Assembly (NCBI GenBank): GCA_041665145.1 | Contig: JBAYJK010000001.1 | Location: 165,629-229,628, forward strand | Reading direction: 5' to 3' | Source of the DNA: Patescibacteria group bacterium | Lineage (GTDB): Bacteria; Patescibacteriota; Microgenomatia; UBA1406 | DNA length: 64,000 nt | In this document: positions 26,990 through 53,161 of the stretch, piece after piece | Layout: every line of letters begins with the position of its first letter | How positions within the stretch are numbered: the first letter of the stretch is position 1 | Program-made: the position numbers and the translations under genes | The notes under the pieces: generated by a model | Databases searched by the model: none | Seen by the model: only the letters and a program-made list of their open reading frames with translations | What the model was told of the DNA's origin: nothing

Positions 26990-27607
26990 ATGAAAATCGA
27001 ACATGCATATGTGCCTGTACCAGCAGGACTACAGCCTTGGCAGATTGAGCCGGGGTTACTTTCAGTGTTTAACAATCAAGCCGCTATTCCGGTCAGCAAC
27101 AATCTGTCTATCGCCAGGCCGTTAGTGCAACATACAGATAATATTCTGGCACTTCTTAATGGTGAGGCTGCCCTTGTCCCCGTGCAAGGGGCGGAGATTG
27201 CGCAGACCATTGCAGCCGGTCTGAACCTTATCGCGTACGATCATGCGGCAGGTGCGGTTGTCGGGTACCAATCGATTGGTCTCTGGAATCAACTAGGCCT
27301 GCTTGAATTACGGTCGGCAAAGGTTTTGCCGAACTACCGGGGTAACGGGCTCAACACCGTTATGAAACAGCTTGCAATATCAATTGGTATGCAACAGTTT
27401 CCGGGACGGAAATTTTTGGGATTTACCGAAGCAGAGAGCAAGAGTCGGGGAATATTATCCAAACTTGGGTTCCAAGAGATGACAATGCAACAAGTTGCTG
27501 CGAAATGGCAGGAGTTGTCGTCAATTTGTCCCGACCAATGCTTTATTAAAACAGGCCATCCGTGTGGCTGTAAAGTTTATATACTTGATCCATATGAAAC
27601 CAAATAA
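26990..27607 (+). CDS. GNAT-like acetyltransferase (weak assignment)
   Basis: The C-terminal half has a VLPNYRGNGLNTVMKQL segment resembling the GNAT acetyl-CoA (R/Q-x-x-G-x-G/A) motif. Confidence 0.4.
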   Translation: MKIEHAYVPVPAGLQPWQIEPGLLSVFNNQAAIPVSNNLSIARPLVQHTDNILALLNGEAALVPVQGAEIAQTIAAGLNLIAYDHAAGAVVGYQSIGLWNQLGLLELRSAKVLPNYRGNGLNTVMKQLAISIGMQQFPGRKFLGFTEAESKSRGILSKLGFQEMTMQQVAAKWQELSSICPDQCFIKTGHPCGCKVYILDPYETK

Positions 27608-27608
27608 T

Positions 27609-28679
27609 ATGTCAAAAACAATAACCGAGGTTTTTATGGATTTAGTGCACATACCATCACCGAGCGGCAACGAAAAAAAAGTAGCTGAATATGTGACTCA
27701 ATTTCTGAAACCGCTTGGTTGGAACACATTCATTGACGATAAAGGGAATGTTATCGCACGTACTTCGCACCGTACCGTAAAACCGGTGGTATTTGTTGCT
27801 CACATGGATACGGTTCAAAAACCGGGTGAGATTGTGCGTCCGCAATTTGATGGCATACATTTTACCAGCGATGGTACTACGATTTTGGGAGCAGATGATA
27901 AAGCGAGTGTTGCTGTACTTCTTGCCTTGGCAAGAAGTTTTTATGAAAGCAAAACTGAACCTCCTGTCGTGCTCATATTTACCACCCGAGAAGAGGCGGG
28001 AACGATGAGTTCGTCTGCTCTTTCTTTTGAGGAGATAAATCCACTATTTATCTGTAATGTTGATGGATCAAATGCTTTGGGGACAATTGACTATCGATCA
28101 TATGGTCAAACAATATTCGAGTTGTCGATCCACGGCAAAGCAGCGCATGCCGCTATTGAGCCAGAGAAAGGAGTACACGCTATTTCGATTCTCGCTCGGA
28201 TAGTAAGTGGTTTGCGTATGGGCAAGTCAAAGTCACGAACCCTAAATATTGGCAGTATTTCTGGGGGCGGGGCAACTAACATTGTTCCTGCTACTGCATC
28301 TGTACGTGGCGAGGTGCGGAGTTATAGACAAGCTATGATCAAATCAACACTTGATAAGATCCTGCAGGATGCAACCCGCATAGCGAAAAAATATGGTGCT
28401 ACTGCTCGACTAAAGATAGTAGAGAACACTCCACCATTTATTGGGGCTAAGTCATCTTTTGCGGTAAGTCGTGTTGTAAATGCACTGAAGAAATCCGGCG
28501 TTGCTCCGATAGTACAGAGTGCGACCTATACAAGCGATTCAGGGTATTTGTCTGCTTCGGGGTATCCGACTGTAACGCTTTGTAAGGGTGGATTAAATCC
28601 CCATAGCACGAGCGAATCGATTACTCTGGTGGAGATGGAGATGCTTCTTGAAATTGTGCAAAAGATAATTATTGATTGA
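27609..28679 (+). CDS. M20-family metallopeptidase/amidohydrolase (PepT/ArgE-like)
   Basis: Has IPSPSGNEKKVAEY, VAHMDTV, GADDKASVA, TTREEAG and a dimerisation-domain pattern. The start is moved to ATG 27609 because the track ORF from 27495 overlaps the upstream gene. Confidence 0.8.
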   Translation: MSKTITEVFMDLVHIPSPSGNEKKVAEYVTQFLKPLGWNTFIDDKGNVIARTSHRTVKPVVFVAHMDTVQKPGEIVRPQFDGIHFTSDGTTILGADDKASVAVLLALARSFYESKTEPPVVLIFTTREEAGTMSSSALSFEEINPLFICNVDGSNALGTIDYRSYGQTIFELSIHGKAAHAAIEPEKGVHAISILARIVSGLRMGKSKSRTLNIGSISGGGATNIVPATASVRGEVRSYRQAMIKSTLDKILQDATRIAKKYGATARLKIVENTPPFIGAKSSFAVSRVVNALKKSGVAPIVQSATYTSDSGYLSASGYPTVTLCKGGLNPHSTSESITLVEMEMLLEIVQKIIID

Positions 28680-28704
28680 CAAGTTTAGTACGTACTAGTA
28701 TACT
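28676..28704 (+). promoter_or_regulatory. Sigma70-type promoter TTGACA-17-TATACT driving a leaderless TrpR-family gene
   Basis: TTGACA at 28676-28681, a 17-nt spacer and TATACT at 28699-28704. The ATG at 28713 is 8 nt downstream. Confidence 0.7.
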
Positions 28705-28710
28705 AGTACG
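28691..28710. promoter_or_regulatory. TrpR-type operator: perfect 20-bp palindrome CGTACTAGTATACTAGTACG
   Basis: The core GTACTAGTATACTAGTAC differs from the idealised E. coli trp operator GTACTAGTTAACTAGTAC only at the two central positions. It covers the -10 box and the predicted transcription start. Confidence 0.8.
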
Positions 28711-28712
28711 GT

Positions 28713-28973
28713 ATGAAAAACAAAGCAGAAATCGAACAGCTGGTACATGTATTACTTAATCTTAGCAACAAGGAAAGAATGGTGGATTTTCTAGAGGGTA
28801 TTTTGACACCTTCAGAACTTGAGGAAGTTGCTCATAGGCTGCAGATAGTAAAAATGTTGAAACTAGGTGTACCGCAAAAAAATATAGCTAAGGAATTGGG
28901 TGTCGGTATTGCAACCGTTACCCGGGGATCTCGTGAGTTGAAGCAAAACAGATTTTCGTATCTTTGGCAATAA
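28713..28973 (+). CDS. TrpR-family (Trp repressor / YerC-YecD-like) DNA-binding protein, 86 aa
   Basis: Has the HTH region NIAKELGVGIATVTRGSRELK (compare E. coli TrpR ELGAGIATITRGSNSLK). The preceding helix motif is LTPSELEEVAHRLQIV. Confidence 0.85.
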   Translation: MKNKAEIEQLVHVLLNLSNKERMVDFLEGILTPSELEEVAHRLQIVKMLKLGVPQKNIAKELGVGIATVTRGSRELKQNRFSYLWQ

Positions 28974-28977
28974 AGCT

Positions 28978-29024
28978 GGCTCGTGTGTGTTTTCTGAGAA
29001 GAGAACGTGCACGAGCCATTTTTT
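28978..29024 (+). terminator. Intrinsic terminator after the TrpR-family gene
   Basis: GGCTCGTG (28978-28985) pairs with CACGAGCC (29010-29017), and T6 follows at 29019-29024. Confidence 0.65.
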
Positions 29025-29117
29025 GTGGCAATTATTATTAGTTACAAATAACTGTTATGTCAGCTGAAAATGCTTTTCCAGTGATCGGAGACGTGGGACT
29101 CGTCTCATCCAGGTTTA

Positions 29118-29783
29118 TTGAGTTACAAAATGGGTTTCCCTGGCGTCATAAAAACACATATAGTCGGGGACGGTATTGAAGGGTTTGACCGCGTGCACGA
29201 AATGACCGAACTTACCTCAAATGCTTTTGGAGTTATGATGGACGAACCGGATGTTGCTCGGCATCTGCTTGGGCACCTTGTGGTAGATGTGGCAGTTGAA
29301 AACAGATCGATAGGGTTTGCAAGCGCCAAGTATTTCAGAACTCAAGCAGGAAACGTCTTATATATTTCCGGAATGGCAATCCATAAAGATTTTCAAGGCC
29401 AGAGAATTGGACCATTGTTGGTTTCTGAAATGTACGACTATTACCAACAGGCAGGAAAAGATGTTGCATATATAGCAGGAAGAACATCAAATCCAAGAGT
29501 AGCCCGATCACGAAGGGTATATTGCGAGGGTAATGGTACATATCCGATTGACCGTGCACCCGACGATAAAGTGGTTGTTGTGGCACAGCATATCCGACAG
29601 GCATTGGGTATGGTGGGAGCTTTTGATCCGTCAACTTTGGTATGTAAAGATGTATATCGCCAACCCTTATACATTGAGCGCCCGAGTAGCGGCGACCAAA
29701 AAATCGATACATTCTTTTTAAGAAATGTAGGAACACGTGATGCGGTTTTTATAATCGGAATTCCTGATTTTAGCAGTTCATAG
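29118..29783 (+). CDS. GNAT-family acetyltransferase-like protein
   Basis: Has ISGMAIHKDFQGQRIGPLLVSEMYDYY (Q-x-x-G-x-G/A-like CoA motif). The start is uncertain: TTG at 29118 or ATG at 29130. Confidence 0.5.
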   Translation: MSYKMGFPGVIKTHIVGDGIEGFDRVHEMTELTSNAFGVMMDEPDVARHLLGHLVVDVAVENRSIGFASAKYFRTQAGNVLYISGMAIHKDFQGQRIGPLLVSEMYDYYQQAGKDVAYIAGRTSNPRVARSRRVYCEGNGTYPIDRAPDDKVVVVAQHIRQALGMVGAFDPSTLVCKDVYRQPLYIERPSSGDQKIDTFFLRNVGTRDAVFIIGIPDFSSS

Positions 29784-29792
29784 AAACCGACC

Positions 29793-30710
29793 ATGTTACC
29801 AGAATTAATTATAGACACAGATGCGGGTCACGACGATATTTTGGCCATTATACTGTTGGTTAAATCAAAACTTTTTAGTATTAAGGCTATTACTACGGTG
29901 GCGGGAAATTCCTCAATTAGAAATGTAACGCGGAATGTATTTTATGTGCTTAACTTATTGCATGAGTCAAATATTCCCATATATTCGGGTTTCCCGTCAC
30001 CTCTTAAACGAAGACTTATTAAAGCAGTTATACACGGCAAAAACGGACTCTCCGGTGCGGACACATCAAAAACAAAATATCACCTGACTAAAGATGCTCC
30101 GGAACAATTAATCAAGATTGTCAAAAATTCACCCCGAAAAGTAACAATCTTGACACTCGGTCCATTATCAAATATTGCGCGGGTGTTGCAAAAAGACCAC
30201 TCAATTGCGACTTCAATAGACAAGATAGTTATGATGGGTGGGTCGTTAAACGGTTATGGTAATAAAAGCAGAGTTGCTGAATTTAATATGTTTGTAGACC
30301 CGGAAGCCGCAGATATTGTATTTAAATCACCCATTCAAAAAATATTACTTCCACTAGATGCTTGTAACGAATGCGCATTTTCTTTAAAAAGCTTTACGCA
30401 ATTACCTACATCCGTTTTGAATACAGCTATTACACAGATGATGAGAGAATATATCTCGAAGATAAAAATTCGGACAGGTATAGAAGGAACTCTGGTTTAT
30501 GATGCGCTTGCGGCTTATTACCTTATCAGTCCAACAGTCTTTACAACTCGCCTTATGGATATCGTGATTGAGAAAAGAGGAAAATATACATCCGGGATGA
30601 CAGTAGCTGAGCGGCGGTTTAGTGTTGTAAAAAAGAATAATGTGAGCGTTATAGAAAAAGTAGAGTACGAAAAGTTTAAGAGTTACTTTTTTGCTTTGTT
30701 AAAAAGTTAA
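29793..30710 (+). CDS. Inosine-uridine-preferring nucleoside hydrolase family (IUNH), copy 1
   Basis: Has the N-terminal Asp cluster LIIDTDAGHDDILAI (DxDxxxDD) and the family-typical length of 305 aa. Confidence 0.85.
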   Translation: MLPELIIDTDAGHDDILAIILLVKSKLFSIKAITTVAGNSSIRNVTRNVFYVLNLLHESNIPIYSGFPSPLKRRLIKAVIHGKNGLSGADTSKTKYHLTKDAPEQLIKIVKNSPRKVTILTLGPLSNIARVLQKDHSIATSIDKIVMMGGSLNGYGNKSRVAEFNMFVDPEAADIVFKSPIQKILLPLDACNECAFSLKSFTQLPTSVLNTAITQMMREYISKIKIRTGIEGTLVYDALAAYYLISPTVFTTRLMDIVIEKRGKYTSGMTVAERRFSVVKKNNVSVIEKVEYEKFKSYFFALLKS

Positions 30711-31014
30711 AGTAACCTCCGCACCCGCGATAAAGCCAATGGGCAACGCGGGTGACGGTTGCAGTTGATGTTTTTAATTTTTTAGCAATTTCCTTATATG
30801 AACTGCCGGTAAAAATAAGGCGGGCCATCTCGAGACGGTTGGCAAACTCTTCTATTTCAGCAGGGGTTAGCATGTCCCGCATAAGCGCTGCCGCTGCAGC
30901 CGTATCTTTCAATGAAGCAAATGCTCGTGTTAAATTTTCCTCCTTAATGTTACGGGGAGAAAAGTGCTCTGACTGTTTAAATTTACTAACAACACCTGTC
31001 CGCGCTTTTACCAT
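30676..31014 (-). CDS. TrpR-family / YerC-YecD-like regulator, copy 2 (112 aa)
   Basis: Has LTPAEIEEFANRLEMARL and the HTH EIAKKLKTSTATVTRVAHWL. The leaderless-type start has TGaTATAGT 6 nt upstream on the minus strand. Its 3' end overlaps the IUNH copy 1 gene by 35 nt (convergent). Confidence 0.8.
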   Translation of the reverse strand: MVKARTGVVSKFKQSEHFSPRNIKEENLTRAFASLKDTAAAAALMRDMLTPAEIEEFANRLEMARLIFTGSSYKEIAKKLKTSTATVTRVAHWLYRGCGGYFNFLTKQKSNS

Positions 31015-31033
31015 ATTTCTACTATATCACAGT

Positions 31034-31061
31034 CACTCCATTTAATTGTTTAAATGGAGTG
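31034..31061. promoter_or_regulatory. Candidate operator: perfect 12-bp inverted repeat CACTCCATTTAA-N4-TTAAATGGAGTG
   Basis: It sits between the divergent promoters of the TrpR-family copy 2 gene and the PRT-HAD operon, and abuts the plus-strand -35 box. Confidence 0.65.
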
Positions 31062-31062
31062 C

Positions 31063-31091
31063 TTGACATCAATGTATTAATGTGATAATAT
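31063..31091 (+). promoter_or_regulatory. Promoter TTGACA-17-TAATAT with TG extension
   Basis: TTGACA at 31063-31068, a 17-nt spacer, TG at 31083-31084 and TAATAT at 31086-31091. Confidence 0.7.
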
Positions 31092-31100
31092 GTTGAAGTC

Positions 31101-31169
31101 ATGAATATTTTACGCAAAAATATAGTTAGTCAAGAAATGCATCATAGCCCCACTCATTCGGGGCAATAA
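31101..31169 (+). CDS. Candidate 22-codon leader peptide MNILRKNIVSQEMHHSPTHSGQ
   Basis: The ATG is 9 nt after the -10 box. The His codons at 31140-31145 immediately precede hairpin arm 1. The stop at 31167-31169 lies just past arm 2. Confidence 0.35.
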   Translation: MNILRKNIVSQEMHHSPTHSGQ

Positions 31170-31198
31170 ATTTACCGCAACAAAATAGAAATTTATCA

Positions 31199-31220
31199 CC
31201 CCGCCAATGGCGGGGTTTTT
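31199..31220 (+). terminator. Leader terminator/attenuator hairpin CCCCGCC-aat-GGCGGGG + T5
   Basis: A 7-bp GC stem is followed by TTTTT, 36 nt upstream of ATG 31257. An alternative pairing of CGGGG (31159-31163) with CCCCG (31199-31203) is possible. Confidence 0.6.
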
Positions 31221-31256
31221 AGTGGGTTAAAACATTAATAATTAAAACAAAAAAAC

Positions 31257-32840
31257 ATGAAACCAGAAATACCAAAGTACATATTGACTGATGATAGCCG
31301 GGCACTTTTCTCTAAGTTAAACGGAGGAGAAGACATTATTGAAGATAGAGTATTTAACCAGGCTGCATCAAAATATTTTGCGATCATTAATCAGCAAATC
31401 GAGCAGGCATTTGATGGGCCACTGAAGATAGTTGGGGAAACGGAAAGAAGAATTGAAAGCCGACTGCAAAGCAGGGTTCGCTCCATTCTGAAATCGGATC
31501 AGAATGTAGTCTGTATTTGTCTGGACCGGTTTCTCTTCGCTGATTTTGATAAAGACCAGACCTTTGCTGACAGGTTTTTTAGATTTAGTACGTGTCGGAC
31601 TATTGACGGACGAAAAGAACCTCGACAAGGAAATCCTTCGTTTGCAGACCAAATTCAGAACTTGCTGAGAAGCATTCCCGATATTAGAAATAGGAAGGTG
31701 GTTGTCGTCGATGACGGTCTGTTTTCTGGCGGTACTATTAATGATTTCCTGATGTTACTCAAAAGTAACGGGATTGAAATAAATCTGGAAAAAATAATCG
31801 GATACATGGGTCCCCGATCGGTCATGAAAGCTTCAGACAGAAAAACTGAAATCCTGCAGCCCATAGACAATTTATTTGAATGGGTGGATGTGCGTGATTT
31901 TAGCCCGCTTGGAGGTAAAAAACTAAATGCCAGTGCCAATAATATGGTAACCACATCAATCCCATATTTATACCCATGGAGTGAGGGAAGTGCGGCAACA
32001 CTCGATATGTCTCCCGCATTTTTTGATACCAGTATCGCGATTATGAAAGGATTCAGACAATTAGTAGTAACGTACGAACTTTTGCGAAATACCAAATTAA
32101 GGTTCAGAGATTTGATTAAGGCCGGTTACCCTTTACCAACCGATAAAGAAAAGACTGTTCCCATCTCAATTAATGACACTGTTACCGATTATTTGGATCG
32201 TTGTATTGGTTTGGTGGAACAAGAGAAAAATAGAAAAGTGGTTATTTGCGACATGGATGGAACGTTTTACCAGCTTGATGGTAAAGGAGGTGGTTATCAA
32301 AATTCTAAGCTAGAGTTAGCAGTACAAACCAATGCCTTATTATTTATACAACGTAGAGAGAAATGCACACCCGATCAAGCACAGTTAATATTTTCTAGAG
32401 CCCAACAAGATCCAGTGGGGGCAAGTTTGTTCTTAGCGGAGAAATATGGAATTTCCCGTACAGATTATTTTAATGAAGTCTGGAATATCGATCCTGCTGG
32501 AATAGTTGTTAATTACGAAGTTGCAACTGGGTCGTTGTGCCAGTTTAAAGGAAAGTACCCGGGGGTGAAACTAGTTTTATTAACGTCAGCTCCCAGAGTT
32601 TGGGCTGAAAAAGTTTTAAAATTCTTGGGTATCAGGGAGCAATTTGAGCTTATATATACCGGAGAACAATTTGGGTCAAAAACAGAAGTTTTTGCACTGC
32701 TAGCTGGTCGTTATAAACCGGAAAACATGCTGTCTATTGGTGATCAGCAGGCAACTGATATTGAACCAGCTCAACAATTGGGAATGAGCACTCTCGTAAT
32801 TAATAGCCCCGACGAAGTTAGTAGAATATTACAATTATGA
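31257..32840 (+). CDS. Fusion protein: type I phosphoribosyltransferase-like N-domain + HAD-superfamily hydrolase C-domain
   Basis: Has the PRPP-binding motif KVVVVDDGLFSGGTI. HAD motif I is VVICDMDGTF, motif II is LLTSAP and motif III/IV is SIGDQQATD. Confidence 0.7.
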   Translation: MKPEIPKYILTDDSRALFSKLNGGEDIIEDRVFNQAASKYFAIINQQIEQAFDGPLKIVGETERRIESRLQSRVRSILKSDQNVVCICLDRFLFADFDKDQTFADRFFRFSTCRTIDGRKEPRQGNPSFADQIQNLLRSIPDIRNRKVVVVDDGLFSGGTINDFLMLLKSNGIEINLEKIIGYMGPRSVMKASDRKTEILQPIDNLFEWVDVRDFSPLGGKKLNASANNMVTTSIPYLYPWSEGSAATLDMSPAFFDTSIAIMKGFRQLVVTYELLRNTKLRFRDLIKAGYPLPTDKEKTVPISINDTVTDYLDRCIGLVEQEKNRKVVICDMDGTFYQLDGKGGGYQNSKLELAVQTNALLFIQRREKCTPDQAQLIFSRAQQDPVGASLFLAEKYGISRTDYFNEVWNIDPAGIVVNYEVATGSLCQFKGKYPGVKLVLLTSAPRVWAEKVLKFLGIREQFELIYTGEQFGSKTEVFALLAGRYKPENMLSIGDQQATDIEPAQQLGMSTLVINSPDEVSRILQL

Positions 32841-33745
32841 ATCAAATAATCATTGATACAGATCCGGGAGTTGACGATGCCTTAGCGATCGCCCTAGCTT
32901 GTCTTTCAAAACTGAATGTGGTCGCTCTGACAACGGTTTATGGTAATGTCAATATTGCCGATTCAACTCGCAATGCACTGACGATATTGTCAGTCATTAA
33001 TAAAAAAGTTTCCGTATACCAAGGGGCGAGTAAACCTTTGATAAATAATGCGATCAAGGCGCAATCTCACGGAGAAAAAGGATTGGGTGGATTCGCAACC
33101 AAACTTAATTGGCAAAAAAGCCGGCGTAGTGCACGAAAATACTTGGAAGATACCTTTGGCTCAGCAGCGGATACGTCTATTACGCTTGTATGTATTGGTC
33201 CTGCAACTAACATTGCCAAATTATTTATTGCCAATCCTCAATCTGTAACAAAAATAAAAGACCTCGTGATTTTAGGTGGGGTATTTAACGAAAAAGGGAA
33301 TATGTCTCAATATTCCGAGTTTAATGCTATCAATGACCCTGAAGCATTAAAAATAGTTTTAAATGCCAATTGCAATAAGGTGCTGATACCTATAAACATT
33401 TGCAGGAAGGTTGTCTTTAAAAAAAGTGATTTTAATAAACTAATAAATAAGAAATTACAGCGATCTTTTGGCGCTATTGCCGATGCTTATATCAACTATT
33501 ATACCTCTGGAAGTAAATATGGTCAGTTTACCGGTGGAGTAATGTACGATTTGCTCACTGTTGTCTATCTTCTAGAGCCGAAGTTATTTAAAACTATAGA
33601 TGCAAATGTAAATGTCATCACAAGATTGGGCCCAATGTACGGTAGGACCATAATAAAGAAAATAGGAAAAGTGAATTGCCGCGTCGTCAGCGAAATTAAG
33701 CCAAGAAAAGTAAAGCAAGTATTTTTTAACGTTTTAAATAAATAA
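32837..33745 (+). CDS. Inosine-uridine-preferring nucleoside hydrolase family (IUNH), copy 2
   Basis: Has IIIDTDPGVDDALAI. Its start overlaps the stop of the upstream gene (ATGA). Confidence 0.85.
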   Translation: MNQIIIDTDPGVDDALAIALACLSKLNVVALTTVYGNVNIADSTRNALTILSVINKKVSVYQGASKPLINNAIKAQSHGEKGLGGFATKLNWQKSRRSARKYLEDTFGSAADTSITLVCIGPATNIAKLFIANPQSVTKIKDLVILGGVFNEKGNMSQYSEFNAINDPEALKIVLNANCNKVLIPINICRKVVFKKSDFNKLINKKLQRSFGAIADAYINYYTSGSKYGQFTGGVMYDLLTVVYLLEPKLFKTIDANVNVITRLGPMYGRTIIKKIGKVNCRVVSEIKPRKVKQVFFNVLNK

Positions 33746-33747
33746 AA

Positions 33748-34839
33748 ATGGAACTAACAAAAATTCTTTCTAAGCTAATCACAATTCCTTCTTTTGTCGA
33801 TGAGAAAAACAACGAGCAAAAACTTGCCGTTTTTATCGAAAGTTATTTGAAGGTTAATGCTCCTTGGCTTAACTTGTCGCGCCAGTATGTGGCTGAGGAC
33901 CGATGGAATATTATCGCCGGTGAAGCTAAAAACCCGGAACTGGTTTTTGTCTGTCACATGGATACGGTGCAACCTACAGGTGATACGCAAAAAATGCTCT
34001 CTCCGTCAGAAAAAGACGGGTATATCTATGGGCTTGGAGCAGCCGACATGAAAGGCGGAACTGCAGCATTGCTTGCGGCGATAAAAGCTGTTGGTCCGAC
34101 AAAAAATGTCGCATATGTGTTTGACTGCGACGAAGAATATTACTTCAAGGGAGCCAAACAGTTATTGAAAAAATGTAAGTGGAATCCCCAACTGGTTATT
34201 TGTCCCGAACCGACGGATATGGAAATCGTAAACGGTTGTCGTGGAATTATTGAGATAAAATTAGACGTAATCGGAAAAAGTGCGCATGCCGGACGGCCTG
34301 ATTTTGGAATCAATGCAATCGAAAAAGCTGTTGCTGTTATCTCGGAACTTAAGAGTAAGATAGGCGAGTTTGATGAGAAGAAACTCGGTAGAACAACAGT
34401 GAACTTAAGTAGATTGGATGGGGGGAAATTACAGAATGGACAGATAATTACCCAAGGGAATGCAGTCCCCGATGTTGCGCGCGTACTCTTGGACATACGA
34501 CCGGCAAGCAATAAATTGAATGGCGATAGAATAATAAGGATGCTTATGACTATTGCGAAAAGGAATAATGTGACGTTGTCAGGTCCGACTGTTACGATTG
34601 ATTATCCGGCATATTATTCAATTCCGAACGAATGTATTAATAGGCCATATCGAGCCAATTTAGGAAAAGGTGGTTTTTACGAAGCGGCTTTATTTTCCCG
34701 AGCCTGGCAATGTACGGCATTTACATTCGGTCCGGGTGACGCAAGTACTTCGCACAGCCCTGATGAGCGGGTAAAACTAGCTGACTTGACGAGTGTAAAG
34801 AAGGTATTCGAAAAGCTTCTATTGACATATCGTGTATAA
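33748..34839 (+). CDS. M20-family amidohydrolase (ArgE/DapE-like), copy 2
   Basis: Has CHMDTV, GAADMKGG, DCDEEY and SAHAGRP motifs. Confidence 0.8.
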   Translation: MELTKILSKLITIPSFVDEKNNEQKLAVFIESYLKVNAPWLNLSRQYVAEDRWNIIAGEAKNPELVFVCHMDTVQPTGDTQKMLSPSEKDGYIYGLGAADMKGGTAALLAAIKAVGPTKNVAYVFDCDEEYYFKGAKQLLKKCKWNPQLVICPEPTDMEIVNGCRGIIEIKLDVIGKSAHAGRPDFGINAIEKAVAVISELKSKIGEFDEKKLGRTTVNLSRLDGGKLQNGQIITQGNAVPDVARVLLDIRPASNKLNGDRIIRMLMTIAKRNNVTLSGPTVTIDYPAYYSIPNECINRPYRANLGKGGFYEAALFSRAWQCTAFTFGPGDASTSHSPDERVKLADLTSVKKVFEKLLLTYRV

Positions 34840-34853
34840 TTATCATAGTTAAA

Positions 34854-35142
34854 AGCTTTGATAGAGACCGAGTAGCCCCGACGAGTCGTGGGTGAATTAC
34901 ACTCTAGAGCTGTAAGCTGAAAAGCAAGTAAGCCGAGCCGGGTGCGCCCCGTGATAGCGCAAGAGTATGTCAGCGTAAGCCGGAGTACTCGATAATGAGC
35001 GTTTGTGCTTTTAATCGAGTCCCGCATAATGGCGGGATTTTTTTTAGCATAAACTGGAAGACAAGGTGGTACCGCGAGCATTAAGCCCTCGCCCTTGTTG
35101 TGAGTCATATTTTTATGACTGACAGGGGTGAGGGCTTTTTTT
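34854..35142 (+). promoter_or_regulatory. T-box riboswitch leader (transcriptional), minimal Stem I, probable Tyr (UAC) specifier
   Basis: The T-box sequence is GGUGGUACCGCG (35065-35076). The antiterminator has helix A1 ACAAGG/CCUUGU, a 7-nt bulge UGGUACC and helix A2 GCGAG/CUCGC. It competes with a 15-bp terminator (35084-35098 / 35122-35136) followed by a T-run. The Stem I base is a K-turn: AGC-UUU-GA (34854-34861) opposite GA-GCU (34907-34911). The specifier loop reads ACCGAGUA / GAAUUACA. TATAAT at 34835-34840 is upstream. Confidence 0.75.
35020..35045 (+). promoter_or_regulatory. Stem III-position hairpin TCCCGC-ataatg-GCGGGA followed by T8 (terminator-like)
   Basis: A 6-bp GC stem plus U8 lies inside the T-box leader. 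It belongs to the CCCGC/GCGGG hairpin family seen at 31199, 52233 and 53241. Confidence 0.55.
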
Positions 35143-35259
35143 GTGGAAATGAAACATTTTAAAAACAGATGCACAGGAAGCAGGAATTTTTATTATATTC
35201 AGCCCTTCTATGGAGGGCGATGGTTGTTTGCTTTTATAAATTGGAAATCAAAAATTACT

Positions 35260-36294
35260 ATGAAAAAACAAAAAATGTTATGGTTTCAGGATGATTTAAA
35301 GCTAGGTGCTCGTAAGTCATGTTGGCAGAGAATAGATTCCCTCACAGGAGCTCTTGTACGAGCAGTTGGTCATCCGAATATGGATCATGAAATTGTGGAT
35401 CCAAGACCACATATAAGTGCGCTTGCTGAAAAGCTCCCACGGGACGCAACATGCGTTATTGACTTAACAAATGGCCAACTTATGGGAGTGCTGTCAGGAT
35501 TATTTGAGAGCAGCACTCTTGTTACTGGTTTCCATTTGAGCAGGCTGCGAGTTGTGTCTTCGGCACGGTTGGATGGTTCAGGTTTTATGTTAAATAAGAC
35601 AGTGAGAGAATTCGCTGCCTTACCATCGCTTATTGACACCTTCCGGACAGTGATACTGGATGATGTTGGTTGGTCTGGAAGATCAGCACTTGAGGTGTGC
35701 CGACTCTTTGGTCTTCCAGTAGCACAAACCACCTTTGGGTTTGTTATGGGTAATGCCGGTGAGTTTGGTCCTTCACCGGGAGCTGTAAATTTATTGCAGA
35801 GTCTGGGAGGTCGAGTAGTTACTGGTGGTTTGGTTGCGACACCCCGTGACGACGGATTTCATGTTTCAGATTTCTGTAGCACTAATAACATTTCTCATTC
35901 CGAATTAATAGAAGCTTTGTTGGTAATTCAGAGTTTGCGAGAGCATGCTGCTCAATTTCCTGGAGAGAGCAAAGAAGTAGAAAAAAGAATAATGCAGCTT
36001 TTTAAGGAGGCTCGCGATCTGCTCTTTCCAAACGCTCTTAGTTCGACTATGATAAAAGAATTAATGCGAGAGGGAAAGGTAATTTGTATGAACGGTATAC
36101 CAAAAGATGCACTCTTTCAGACGAATCCATTAAATTGGTTACTTCCTTCTTTTGCTAAGCGTGTTCGAAGTGAAGATTTGCAACAGAATTTGGCAATTGT
36201 CATTGGCTCTTTAGATGAGTTACGGGCGATCAAAGAAGAAGGTAATGTGCAAGGAATAGAAGGTAACTTTCTAAATATGGAGATGAGACTATGA
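35260..36294 (+). CDS. PRT-like protein (degenerate PRPP motif), paralogous in layout to the N-domain of the 31257 protein
   Basis: Has TVILDDVGWSGRSALEV (hydrophobic strand, DD, small residues). The start is moved to ATG 35260 because the track ORF from 35128 runs through the T-box terminator. Confidence 0.5.
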   Translation: MKKQKMLWFQDDLKLGARKSCWQRIDSLTGALVRAVGHPNMDHEIVDPRPHISALAEKLPRDATCVIDLTNGQLMGVLSGLFESSTLVTGFHLSRLRVVSSARLDGSGFMLNKTVREFAALPSLIDTFRTVILDDVGWSGRSALEVCRLFGLPVAQTTFGFVMGNAGEFGPSPGAVNLLQSLGGRVVTGGLVATPRDDGFHVSDFCSTNNISHSELIEALLVIQSLREHAAQFPGESKEVEKRIMQLFKEARDLLFPNALSSTMIKELMREGKVICMNGIPKDALFQTNPLNWLLPSFAKRVRSEDLQQNLAIVIGSLDELRAIKEEGNVQGIEGNFLNMEMRL

Positions 36295-36818
36295 CAAAGA
36301 AAAGAAAGATTCAAATAGCAGTTGTTGGTTCAATGTTCGACTTGCCGCAAAACCGGTCTACTATCGCGCTTGCAAGAGATATTGGAAGAGAATTAGCCAC
36401 TAATAAAGCAGTTTTGTTATATAGCTTCGAAGGGGATAGTCAATCACTTTCTTATATAGCAGCTAGAGAAGCTGAAAAATGTGGTGGAGAAATTATCGCA
36501 TTTCTTTGGGGTAATACGAAAGTGACGGGCTCTGTAGTAGGAAAAGCAGTTCGAACCGGGCAACTCCGAGGAGGAGGCAGAGAATTCCCACTAATTTTAA
36601 GTGCTAACGCTGTTATAAGTATTGGTGGTGGATCAGGGACTCTTATGGAGATAGCTATGTCTTATCAAGCGGGAATTCCTGTCATTGCTCTCGAAAATAC
36701 TGGTGGATGGAGTGAACGCCTGATGAATACGTTTATGGATGAAAGAAAAAGAAATAAAGTGCTTTCAGCAAAAGATGCTCGAAGTGCAGTGCTTCTGGCG
36801 ATAAAGGAAAGTATTTAG
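36291..36818 (+). CDS. TIGR00725 / LOG (SLOG)-family Rossmann protein
   Basis: Has IAVVGS at the N-terminus and the ISIGGGSGTLMEIAMSYQAGIPVIAL motif (GGGxGTxxE). ATGA overlap with the upstream gene. Confidence 0.7.
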   Translation: MTKKRKIQIAVVGSMFDLPQNRSTIALARDIGRELATNKAVLLYSFEGDSQSLSYIAAREAEKCGGEIIAFLWGNTKVTGSVVGKAVRTGQLRGGGREFPLILSANAVISIGGGSGTLMEIAMSYQAGIPVIALENTGGWSERLMNTFMDERKRNKVLSAKDARSAVLLAIKESI

Positions 36819-52094: not shown

Positions 52095-52120
52095 ACTACC
52101 GTTACATATCTGATGTATAA

Positions 52121-52144
52121 AACTCCACGTGTTGGAGTTTTTTT
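52121..52144 (+). terminator. Intrinsic terminator AACTCCA-cgtgt-TGGAGTT + T-run (pnp terminator and/or leader attenuator)
   Basis: A 5-7 bp stem is followed by T7. An 11-codon ORF (52113-52148, MYKTPRVGVFL) reads through it. Confidence 0.6.
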
Positions 52145-52232
52145 GTGAAATAAATTGATTTATTAGCTGATGATTACGCACAAAATTGTTCTTTGCATTA
52201 CAAATAAAGAGCTTTGGCTCTTGAAATTTTAA

Positions 52233-52257
52233 CCCCGCTTAAAGCGGGATTTTTTTT
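52233..52257 (+). promoter_or_regulatory. Terminator-like hairpin CCCGC-ttaaa-GCGGG + T8, ending 4 nt before ATG 52262
   Basis: A GC stem plus U8 sits immediately upstream of the start codon, with no SD sequence between them. Confidence 0.5.
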
Positions 52258-52261
52258 GACT

Positions 52262-53161
52262 ATGACAGATAGATTACGTAGCGGTTCAATAACAGAAGAG
52301 CACGTTCGAAGAATCACCGAGTACCATGGTCGACGGTTAGTTATCATAACGGGCAGTCTGCCCTCCACACAAGAAATTTACGCCCAAGGAGGAATCCAAC
52401 TGAGTGGAGATCCTGCTTTGCGTTTATTTTCAGGCAGGGGGGAAGATTATTACGGAAAAACAAGTGGTGTCGGGCCGATTGTCAATTCACACAGAGCGCA
52501 TTCTCATACGGTCGAAGCGGCTGGAGCTAAAACTATCGGCGTGATGGTTGGAGTTCAAACACACCCTGAGCTTTTGCAGACTGATATTACTGATCTGGCG
52601 CTGGGTACTCGTGATACCGCACATTCATTCGTGAGTCCGGATGGCACCGTTCAGACGGTGCTCAATAAGGCTGATAAAGGTGACTCTACACAAATTGACG
52701 CTTTGGCTCGGCAGTTTTTTATTATGGCAGAGCGGGGAGATCGGGCTAGCATTGCAACGTCGATGGCGCAATTAAGTCCCGATCATAATTCAATTCGACT
52801 CCTTTTAACTCGACTGCACTATGGAGTCGTCGCTCCTGAAATTTCTGAGGAGGAGCTGAAGGAATATATGCTTGCGCATGGTGCAGGAATTGCCGGAAGC
52901 ATCGACTGGTTAGTTGCGGTAAAAATGGGTGTTATCCAGCCGTTCAATAGAGCCACGTTCGTTCATCAACAACTTACTATCGGAGCAGATTCTCCGGAAG
53001 TTGCACCACAGGATTTATGGAGATGGATGCGAACGTCTCCTCAGGAAAGGGAACCGCTTCAGGTTGTTGACGAAGTACGCGGTGAACTTCCGTTTTGCCC
53101 TGGAGATCCTGCAAACCGGCAGCAGCTTCTTTTGCTCAGTCGAGGTATTTTAACCCAATAA
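52262..53161 (+). CDS. Hypothetical protein (300 aa); possible Rossmann/SLOG-like N-half (very tentative)
   Basis: The ORF starts at ATG 52262; the track's TTG at 52214 would read through the hairpin. The segment RLVIITGS...AAGAKTIGVMVGV weakly recalls TIGR00725-type proteins. Confidence 0.45.
   Translation: MTDRLRSGSITEEHVRRITEYHGRRLVIITGSLPSTQEIYAQGGIQLSGDPALRLFSGRGEDYYGKTSGVGPIVNSHRAHSHTVEAAGAKTIGVMVGVQTHPELLQTDITDLALGTRDTAHSFVSPDGTVQTVLNKADKGDSTQIDALARQFFIMAERGDRASIATSMAQLSPDHNSIRLLLTRLHYGVVAPEISEEELKEYMLAHGAGIAGSIDWLVAVKMGVIQPFNRATFVHQQLTIGADSPEVAPQDLWRWMRTSPQEREPLQVVDEVRGELPFCPGDPANRQQLLLLSRGILTQ

Follow-up and report, generated by a model that had tools for sequence, protein, structure and literature searches.

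In an uncultured, ultra-small bacterium of the Patescibacteria (CPR), a switch that we describe here from comparative sequence analysis very probably turns a histidine-linked operon on when histidine is short. The element lies within the 64,000-nucleotide stretch of DNA that was analysed, hereafter the window, and we consider it likely to be a ribosome-mediated attenuator that senses charged tRNA-His and is layered on a HisR repressor-operator switch. The original prediction, made from this DNA alone, had proposed a trp/his-type attenuator and had left its signal undecided; comparative data identify histidine as that signal, since a HisR-family repressor and its candidate operators adjoin the leader, hisS belongs to the operon in relatives, and the same device precedes hisS-hisG-hisC-hisD. 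A single window sequence would be suggestive only, and it is the occurrence of the whole layout in 25 other leaders that carries the case beyond chance. The parts of the window element are these:

30676-31014, - strand: hisR-like repressor gene (TrpR/YerC-YecD family), divergent from the leader
31039-31056, no strand assigned: candidate HisR operator 1, the perfect palindrome CATTTA-attgtt-TAAATG, lying between the two divergent genes
31063-31091, + strand: leader promoter, -35 TTGACA (31063-31068), 17-nt spacer, -10 TAATAT (31086-31091)
31074-31091, no strand assigned: candidate HisR operator 2, GTATTA-atgtga-TAATAT with 1 mismatch, which overlaps the -10 box
31101-31169, + strand: leader peptide ORF (uORF) of 22 codons, MNILRKNIVSQEMHHSPTHSGQ and stop, with its ATG 9 nt past the -10 box; probably leaderless
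31105-31123, + strand: ATATTTT-acgca-AAAATAT, a perfect inverted repeat of 7 bp at the uORF's 5' end, present in the MFE and centroid folds
31140-31145, + strand: tandem His control codons CAT CAT, a conserved His pair or run that is in frame across leaders
31147-31164, + strand: hairpin 1:2, GCCCC (31147-31151) with GGGGC (31160-31164), 8-nt loop, -10.8 kcal/mol
31159-31203, + strand: antiterminator 2:3, CGGGG (31159-31163) paired to CCCCG (31199-31203), together with an inner stem
31166-31173 with 31189-31196, + strand: antiterminator inner stem, bringing 2:3 to a total of -12.1 kcal/mol
31198-31220, + strand: intrinsic terminator ACCCCGCC-aat-GGCGGGGT and the U run after it
31222-31232, + strand: conserved box GTGGGTTAAAA directly after the terminator, identical in the window, locus L035 of CP066689 and L044
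31257-34839, + strand: regulated operon of PRT-HAD, nucleoside hydrolase and M20 genes, assigned by Pfam and NCBIfam matches
31257-32840, + strand: PRT-HAD fusion, first operon gene
32837-33745, + strand: inosine-uridine-type nucleoside hydrolase, second operon gene
33748-34839, + strand: M20 ArgE/DapE-type deacylase, third operon gene

When checked against the sequence, the uORF, promoter spacing and segment coordinates of the original prediction were all present, as was its terminator, with a stem at 31198-31216 and a T run to 31220. The leader promoter matches 10 of 12 consensus positions, carries an extended -10 TG-n and is the top sigma-70 match across 30000-36500, and other free-standing leaders have TTGACA-type promoters at the same place. 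The uORF ends with TAA at 31167-31169 and contains a third His codon at 31155-31157, inside the loop of hairpin 1:2. Folding, which had been suggested as a check, returned both hairpin 1:2 and the terminator in the RNAfold MFE and centroid structures (z-score -2.4 against shuffles), and the terminator has 8 pairs, 7 of them G-C, with an energy of -15.3 to -15.9 kcal/mol. No counterpart of the inverted repeat at 31105-31123 was seen in the other leaders. We also asked whether terminators of this genome generally carry GTGG behind their U run and rejected the idea; terminators in the window do not share the box as a rule. Downstream, the operon genes overlap or abut, no promoter match was found between the terminator and 31257, and the next terminator-like site after the operon lies at 35017-35040. 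Gene order is conserved in relatives as PRT-HAD, IUNH, an optional M20 and hisS; a tblastn search found hisS absent from the 64-kb window. The operon probably serves histidine scavenging.

The predicted RNA can adopt three competing pairings, whose energies in the window are -10.8 (1:2), -12.1 (2:3) and -15.9 kcal/mol (3:4). Antitermination by pairing of segments 2 and 3, as originally proposed, stands in that their complementarity is locus-specific; the window's 5 bp alone are weak (-6.0 kcal/mol) and need the inner stem. Across loci, the duplex formed by a leader's own segments 2 and 3 has a mean energy of -12.7 kcal/mol, compared with -9.9 +/- 0.5 in cross-locus permutations, 0 of 20000 of which reached the observed value, and when transcripts were cut before segment 4 the 2:3 pairing was the MFE structure in nearly all leaders. 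The three-way complementarity is kept in unrelated sequence classes, namely GGAGGG (L043), CGUGCUGA (L060), AGCGG-UGUGA (L067) and GGCUGGUGA (L071). The permutation test was used instead of alignment covariation for 2:3; MAFFT misplaces the register in L001, L043 and L061. In the class-I alignment, the 2:3 helix is 82.5% paired as against about 50% with the partner columns slid, and is free of compensatory change, as expected of sequences that hardly vary; helix 1:2 of the same alignment has 83% of its cells paired and a covariation score above that of 497 of 500 shuffles.

Spacing places these pairings under the reach of a translating ribosome. Segment 1 starts 1 nt past the His hexamer, and the stop codon lies 3 nt past segment 2 and 28 nt before segment 3, so that with modelled footprints, their sizes taken from general knowledge, a stalled ribosome is predicted to mask segment 1 only and a terminating one to mask segment 2 and not segment 3. 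With the ribosome modelled at His1 or His2 the antiterminator is the MFE structure of the nascent transcript, and with the ribosome modelled at the stop codon the antiterminator is abolished. Hairpin 1:2 would be the anti-antiterminator, and possibly also a pause hairpin. Some of the predictions weigh against the attenuator reading. A ribosome that stalled at the third His codon (31155) would cover segment 2, and termination would be favoured. At equilibrium the window terminator wins even with segment 1 masked, so that the switch has to work kinetically. Many relatives have a 2:3 pairing whose predicted stability exceeds that of 1:2 with no ribosome present.

Our comparison set consists of 25 homologous Patescibacteria leaders and the window, 26 in all, and their downstream PRT-HAD proteins are only 31-52% identical. 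A homologue scan based on the full-length alignment gave at least 3 full-length loci among a mass of matches to the generic HAD motif, and the scan was repeated on metagenomes using a PRT-domain-only alignment. The four-segment layout recurs in these homologous leaders of very different sequence, and the uORF and its His codons, whose conservation in related genomes had been named as a check, are kept: 17 of 17 free-standing leaders have an ORF that begins with ATG and continues through the His hexamer, and the other two frames are open in 1 and 0 of the 17. The free-standing uORFs place 8-13 codons ahead of the His pair and retain their ATG and open frame in very divergent genomes. Of the 26 leaders, 23 have an in-frame His pair or run and the remaining three a single His (H-Q in L038 and L043, H-Y in L061), and the codons used are CAT (50 times) and CAC (15 times). 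Among folded leaders, the hairpin begins 1-3 nt past the His codons or includes them. A terminator occupies the equivalent position in 23 of the 26 leaders, a clear one not being found in L042, L045 and L068; the distance from first His codon to stop codon is 15-45 nt across leaders, and 20-34 nt lie between stop codon and segment 3 in each of the 23 with a terminator. In most loci only 7-40 nt separate the terminator from the next start codon, which leaves no space for a separate promoter, and the terminator must therefore be read through. A covariance model recovered instances outside its training set (L046, CAC CAC; a second copy in L048, CAC CAT; L005, HHHH). Its weak match at window positions 52190-52256 was rejected; this site consists of two consecutive terminators without His codons or 2:3 complementarity.

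The genes that surround these leaders tie them to histidine. The product of 30676-31014 matches Pfam Trp_repressor (1.7e-16) and NCBIfam TIGR02531 YerC/YecD (46.4 against a cut-off of 42.2), and its closest solved relative is 3g1c, an E. eligens protein that Ashniev et al. (2022; PMC9413887) treat as HisR. A hisR-like gene is adjacent at most related loci. The published HisR operator consensus is cacTTTAnnnnnnTAAAgtg (PMC9413887), and in a palindrome scan candidate operator 1 carried its TTTA-N6-TAAA core. ATGTTA-N6-TAACAT or ATATTA-N6-TAATAT lies over the -10 box at the same position in L001, L035, L069, L045 and L068; ACTTTA-N6-TAAAGT is found upstream of hisR in L038, L040, L049, L060 and L065-L067, and ACTTTA-N6-TAAAG[T/C] in L070-L073. 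HisR would be expected to bind these putative operators. Further downstream, hisS follows in L002, L003, L038, L053, L066 and L068, and in L072 the same hisR tail, hairpin and U run stand ahead of hisS-hisG-hisC-hisD. The same arrangement precedes histidine-racemase homologues in L005, L009 and L073; the 270-aa protein of L005 and L009 had been considered as a PRT-domain homologue, for which no homology was found, and is the histidine-racemase homologue. Queuosine sensing through Asn/His/Asp/Tyr codons near the His pair was set aside because of the HisR operators, hisS and the true his operon.

From the computed parts, spacing, pairings, conservation and gene link we infer a mechanism that would involve ribosome stalling, translation of the leaderless uORF and kinetic competition between structures. 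Transcription would start at about 31098. There is no Shine-Dalgarno sequence upstream of the uORF, which must be translated as a leaderless mRNA; among 45 long ORFs of the window, 13 have a -10-like box that ends 5-11 nt ahead of their ATG, an SD-like core is present in only 3 of 46, and leaderless mRNAs appear common in this genome. This explanation assumes that the uORF is translated without a leader and that transcription and translation are coupled in Patescibacteria. When His-tRNA is plentiful, the ribosome would reach the stop codon at 31167 and cover segment 2 (31159-31164), the terminator (31198-31216) would form, and transcription would end at about 31220; were the ribosome already gone, segment 2 would be held in hairpin 1:2, likewise with termination. 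When His-tRNA is scarce, the ribosome would stall with CAT 31140 or 31143 in its A site, covering segment 1 (31147-31151), and the freed segment 2 could pair with 31199-31203, aided by the inner stem, before the 3' arm of the terminator is made. RNA polymerase would then read into the PRT-HAD, nucleoside hydrolase and M20 genes.

A second form of the leader, subfamily B, has no separate leader ORF. Its His hexamer lies within the hisR gene itself, in a C-terminal extension, and the same sequence block forms the hisR 3' end and then the terminator; in subfamily A, the peptide is detached from HisR and its position relative to hairpin and terminator is kept. HH or HxH occurs in the C-terminal extension of 106 of the 120 closest subfamily-B HisR proteins, and His makes up 13.6% of tail residues as against 0.1% in the HisR body; the search behind this sample turned up 886 HisR homologues. 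We hypothesize, with somewhat better than even confidence, that in a large Patescibacterial HisR subfamily the last 10-20 codons of hisR act as an attenuator leader peptide, tRNA-His charging being read at the in-frame His run and deciding read-through into histidine-linked genes. The genes so controlled would be the his operon, hisS, histidine-racemase homologues, or the PRT-HAD and nucleoside hydrolase pair. To our knowledge, there is no precedent for the tail of a repressor gene serving as a leader peptide.

Several other explanations bear on the same data. An anti-antiterminator under protein or ligand control, in which a PyrR-like PRT domain, HisR or a small molecule stabilises 1:2 and the ORF is incidental, would account for the topology of anti-antiterminator, antiterminator and terminator, which is that of PyrR-type systems. 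The PRT domain weakly matches solved structures including PyrR (E 0.003-0.04, PRPP loop only), one PRT-HAD homologue is labelled PyrR/UPRT by JGI, and the nucleotides of GCGGGGTAAT are preserved in L048 and L050 too, which read them in a different frame. What is constant across sequence classes, however, is the in-frame His codons and the complementarities only, with no loop or bulge motif; the His codons vary synonymously, the His frame alone is open, and no Rfam family, PyrR-site, T-box and riboswitch models included, matches above chance level in a search at E<=10, which makes this account unlikely. The make-up of the subfamily B block, hisR 3' end and terminator, would explain the origin of the uORF tail if the leader were an unregulated leaky terminator or insulator and the short ORF a decaying 3' remnant of a once co-directional hisR. 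Yet divergent free-standing uORFs preserve their start codon, their open frame and a stretch of 8-13 codons leading up to the His pair, segments 2 and 3 stay complementary in spite of differing sequences, and no promoter space exists past the terminator; the enrichment of His in the tail over the HisR body argues for selection and not decay, and we hold a mere remnant to be quite unlikely.

The same His-rich tails of the 106 subfamily-B proteins make a protein-level role on a histidine-binding repressor plausible, with the peptide acting as a peptide, whether as a metal- or ligand-binding tail that modulates HisR or as a free micropeptide, and with the RNA structures being ordinary terminators. 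We think this very unlikely, as the subfamily A peptide is detached and yet fixed relative to hairpin and terminator, the residues past the His pair track the RNA hairpin class (LASAG for CUCGCUUCCGCGGGG) and not a peptide motif, and in three leaders there is one His only. A unit of about 122 nt is indeed enclosed by a strong promoter and a strong terminator, as would befit a small RNA or small-protein gene that stands on its own, with promoter, about 120 nt and terminator, and is independent of the operon; the unit is, however, always immediately upstream of a histidine-linked operon on the same strand, or fused to hisR, and no operon promoter was found downstream of it, so that an independent gene is highly improbable.

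The attenuator that we favour can be compared with known systems. Like hisL and trpL of E. coli and Salmonella, it has a short ORF with tandem codons for the regulatory amino acid, four segments with 1:2, 2:3 and 3:4 alternatives, and an intrinsic terminator ahead of the first structural gene, and the energy ranking in trpL is the same as that of the window (-10.8, -12.1, -15.9 kcal/mol). As in the trp system, where TrpR is combined with trpL, the window attenuator is combined with a TrpR-family repressor and operator. The window has two adjacent His codons only, which we counted against the attenuator reading; E. coli trpL likewise has two control codons only, and hisL has 7 His codons as against 2-3 in the window. 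Unlike hisL and trpL, the window uORF is leaderless and without an SD, its host is a Patescibacterium, and its target is non-biosynthetic, made up of PRT-HAD, nucleoside hydrolase and M20 deacylase genes, to which relatives add hisS. The pyr attenuators of Bacillus controlled by PyrR consist of three mutually exclusive hairpins (anti-antiterminator, antiterminator, terminator) and can sit between genes of one operon, as the subfamily B attenuator sits between hisR and the gene that follows. What drives PyrR systems is protein-RNA binding and not a ribosome, whereas the conserved element here is an in-frame codon pair.

Database and literature searches place the leader outside described families. 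The original prediction had named a match to a known riboswitch model as the alternative, and Rfam returned neither a riboswitch nor any other family match at the leader: over the whole window, the sole match at gathering score is a tRNA, and a search of 31040-31270 at E<=10 gave sub-threshold, chance-level matches only, with His_leader (RF00514) not among them and Trp_leader at 19 bits against a gathering score of 41. One study describes candidate His leaders in Firmicutes (Ashniev et al., 2022; PMC9413887), in which alternative hairpins closely follow predicted leader peptides that contain 3-5 His codons. The HisR (YerC) regulon outlined there has the same repressor family and TTTA-N6-TAAA palindromic operators as the window, and the attenuators in that study are reported in lineages without HisR, whereas here both controls are on one operon. 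Patescibacteria lie outside the coverage of that paper, in which the word does not occur, and its passages drawn on here hold no mention of the hisR-tail form. Full-text literature searches found no report of leader-peptide attenuation or HisR in Patescibacteria. The mechanism is classical; the host phylum, leaderless uORF, target operon and repressor-tail form are, as far as we have found, new.

Since most Patescibacteria cannot be grown in culture, their gene regulation has hardly been explored. Our findings suggest that the enterobacterial combination of repressor and attenuator operates in the CPR, on leaderless transcripts, which argues for tight transcription-translation coupling in these bacteria. 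If the hisR-tail hypothesis is true, one gene would encode both a DNA-level and an RNA-level histidine sensor, transcription and translation would be functionally coupled in CPR bacteria, and the regulon would mark PRT-HAD and nucleoside hydrolase as parts of a histidine-acquisition route in auxotrophic episymbionts. The regulon also tags as histidine-related the PRT-HAD protein, its paired nucleoside hydrolase, M20 and M15 hydrolases, a GNAT protein and a CntK-like racemase, and these tags offer a testable entry into histidine acquisition by amino-acid auxotrophic episymbionts.

The attenuator interpretation of the leader ahead of the PRT-HAD operon is supported by in-frame His codons, by locus-specific complementarity between segments 2 and 3, and by a geometry conserved in homologous leaders. 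The parts on which the original prediction had been built, namely a 22-codon upstream ORF (uORF) with tandem His codons, three short pairing segments and a terminator, were all confirmed in the sequence, and hairpin and terminator are both present in the minimum free energy (MFE) and centroid folds. Within the surrounding 6.5 kb, the leader promoter is the top sigma-70 match and the terminator the strongest listed.

Features of the leader and its neighbourhood in the window
27495-28679, + strand: PepT-like M20 peptidase
29118-29783, + strand: GNAT
29793-30710, + strand: second nucleoside hydrolase; its 3' end overlaps the hisR 3' end by 35 nt (30676-30710)
30676-31014, - strand: hisR-like gene, TrpR family, divergent from the leader
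31039-31056: candidate HisR operator, CATTTA-N6-TAAATG
31063-31091, + strand: leader promoter, TTGACA, 17-nt spacer, TG-n-TAATAT
31074-31091: candidate HisR operator over the -10 box, GTATTA-N6-TAATAT
31101-31169, + strand: 22-codon uORF
31140-31145, + strand: His codons, CAT CAT
31147-31151, + strand: segment 1, GCCCC
31160-31164, + strand: segment 2, GGGGC
31199-31203, + strand: segment 3, CCCCG
31198-31216, + strand: terminator, followed by a U run
31257-34839, + strand: PRT-HAD fusion, inosine-uridine-type nucleoside hydrolase and M20 deacylase, mutually overlapping or abutting

The host belongs to the Patescibacteria (CPR) and is Microgenomates-like, and the nearest PRT-HAD relatives, in Roizman-, Woese- and Beckwithbacteria, share at most 52% identity. 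Among homologous loci gathered from genomes, metagenomes and assemblies, the same device recurs upstream of homologues despite protein identities of just 31-52%, and a terminator is present in 23 of the 26 leaders. For transcripts truncated ahead of the terminator's 3' arm, pairing of segments 2 and 3, the antiterminator, is the MFE structure in nearly all leaders. The segment-2 region forms a duplex with its own segment 3 at a mean of -12.7 kcal/mol, against -9.9 +/- 0.5 in cross-locus permutations, none of which (0/20,000) reached the observed value, so that the complementarity is locus-specific. A simple duplicated hairpin is excluded, since leaders of unrelated sequence retain the three-way relation: GGAGGG with CCCUC (L043), CGUGCUGA with UCAGCACG (L060), AGCGG-UGUGA with UCACCCGCU (L067) and GGCUGGUGA with UCACCAGCC (L071). 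Covariation in the class-I alignment, which is nearly invariant, is modest for helices 1:2 and 3:4 and absent for helix 2:3, a limitation of the comparative support.

The geometry fits control by a translating ribosome. In homologous leaders segment 1 includes the His hexamer or begins 1-3 nt 3' of it, the stop codon lies 15-45 nt 3' of the first His codon, and 20-34 nt separate the stop codon from segment 3 in every terminator-bearing leader. The predicted energies in the window are -10.8 kcal/mol for 1:2, -15.9 for 3:4 and -6.0 for 2:3 alone, or -12.1 for 2:3 with an inner stem (31166-31173/31189-31196). With a ribosome modelled at either His codon the antiterminator stays the MFE structure of the nascent RNA; with one at the stop codon it is abolished. 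The terminator is favoured at equilibrium, and the switch must therefore be kinetic, as is also the case for trpL. The device is mechanistically of the classical kind, with every step of the mechanism beyond sequence and predicted structure being inferred.

Two arrangements recur. Type A, to which the window belongs, has a promoter and then a free-standing uORF of 15-34 codons, encoding for example MKSLTLQTSKIVHHNLAPAG (L035), MIIKLLSSLHHTHAHAG (L001) or MNLINFVDLISHHSLASAG (L069), with 8-13 codons before the His pair in most cases. In type B, hisR is co-directional and its frame extends beyond the conserved domain into His codons (...RLSHHTHAKAG*, ...NTHHHGSLSPLGEDS*, ...SHHTPAKLAV*), so that the codons are part of a bona fide gene. 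All 17 type-A leaders (17/17) have a frame that starts with ATG and stays open through the hexamer in the His register, against 1/17 and 0/17 for the other two frames; His codons vary synonymously across leaders (CAT 50 times, CAC 15). HH or HxH occurs in the C-terminal extensions of 106 of the 120 closest subfamily-B HisR proteins, and the His content is 13.6% in the tail versus 0.1% in the remaining protein. We identify histidine as the signal sensed, a point the original prediction had left open. The missing Shine-Dalgarno sequence of the uORF is no objection in this genome, because only 3 of 46 long ORFs (>=150 aa) in the window have such a core, and a TAnWWT -10-like box ends 5-11 nt before the ATG in 13 of 45 (control offsets, 3 and 1), which suggests widespread leaderless mRNAs; the uORF's 9-nt spacing fits this pattern.

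Trained on ten leaders, a covariance model recovered instances outside its training set: L046 (CAC CAC), a second copy in L048 (CAC CAT), L005 (HHHH) and the hisR tail of L009 (HHH). A weak match in the window (29 bits) was rejected, having neither His codons nor antiterminator complementarity; the site (52120-52262) consists of two terminator-like hairpins in succession, each with a U run, within ~140 nt and upstream of an ORF whose start is near 52263. In L048 (587-1930) the whole module of hisR, promoter, His uORF and terminator is tandemly duplicated, placing two complete attenuators in series ahead of PRT-HAD. Three loci (L042 2880-2990, L045 2880-3000, L068 2390-2500) have a His uORF and hairpin 1:2 without a clear terminator. 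Because the downstream stem in L045 pairs CCUCCU with AAGGAGG immediately before the start codon, it suggests a variant that may act on translation through ribosome-binding-site sequestration.

Two further elements accompany the window's leader. A perfect 7-bp inverted repeat (ATATTTT-acgca-AAAATAT, 31105-31123) spans uORF codons 2-8, close (a few nt) to where the transcript presumably starts; it was not seen in other leaders and could interfere with initiation on a leaderless mRNA or serve as another operator. Directly 3' of the terminator U run, the box GTGGGTTAAAA is shared without change by the three closest leaders (window 31222-31232, L035 4977-4987, L044 ~100-112) and absent after the window's other terminators; its GUGGG could base-pair with CCCAC of segment 1 (31149-31153).

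The product of the divergent gene scores above the NCBIfam YerC/YecD cut-off, and its best solved relative is 3g1c, whose family is treated by Ashniev et al. (2022, PMC9413887) as HisR, a repressor with histidine as co-repressor and the operator consensus cacTTTAnnnnnnTAAAgtg. HisR-type sites also occur upstream of hisR at type-B loci (ACTTTA-N6-TAAAG(T/C)) and over the -10 box at type-A loci (ATGTTA-N6-TAACAT or ATATTA-N6-TAATAT). Just upstream in the window (27495-30710, + strand) is a second group of genes for the same types of enzyme, and GNAT, M20, HAD and nucleoside hydrolase genes are also grouped in the L005 and L009 operons that have the His attenuator.

The leader belongs to no Rfam leader family. 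Judged against the literature searched, several aspects are new: the phylum, the leaderless uORF, the pairing of attenuator and HisR on a non-biosynthetic operon, and the subfamily whose repressor-gene tail is the leader peptide.

The recurrent operon order is hisR, attenuator, PRT-HAD, nucleoside hydrolase, optional M20 and hisS, with hisS downstream in six of the compared loci. Free uORFs or hisR tails also precede other gene sets (L072 4501-9336, L073 4501-6984, L005 860-5847, L009 1182-5048): hisS-hisG(+Inositol_P)-hisC-hisD follows a hisR tail in L072, and in L005, L009 and L073 the device precedes homologues of cofactor-independent histidine racemase (best solved match 9cr6, 'Histidine racemase', E 7e-17; Pfam CntK_N found). 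In one such set a CntK_N-GNAT fusion is accompanied by an M15 dipeptidase; another joins a racemase homologue with GNAT, M15, HAD, nucleoside hydrolase and M20 genes. In L070 (4815-4892) and L071 (4815-4960) a hisR-tail device stands ahead of proteins without a Pfam match, of 281 and 436 aa respectively; the start called for the L071 gene falls within the attenuator, whereas its likely start follows the terminator and a GGAG. Together, the other gene sets look like a Patescibacterial histidine regulon. Because HisR-type operators, hisS, a his operon and histidine-racemase homologues accompany the device, the genes it regulates are histidine-linked, probably serving scavenging.
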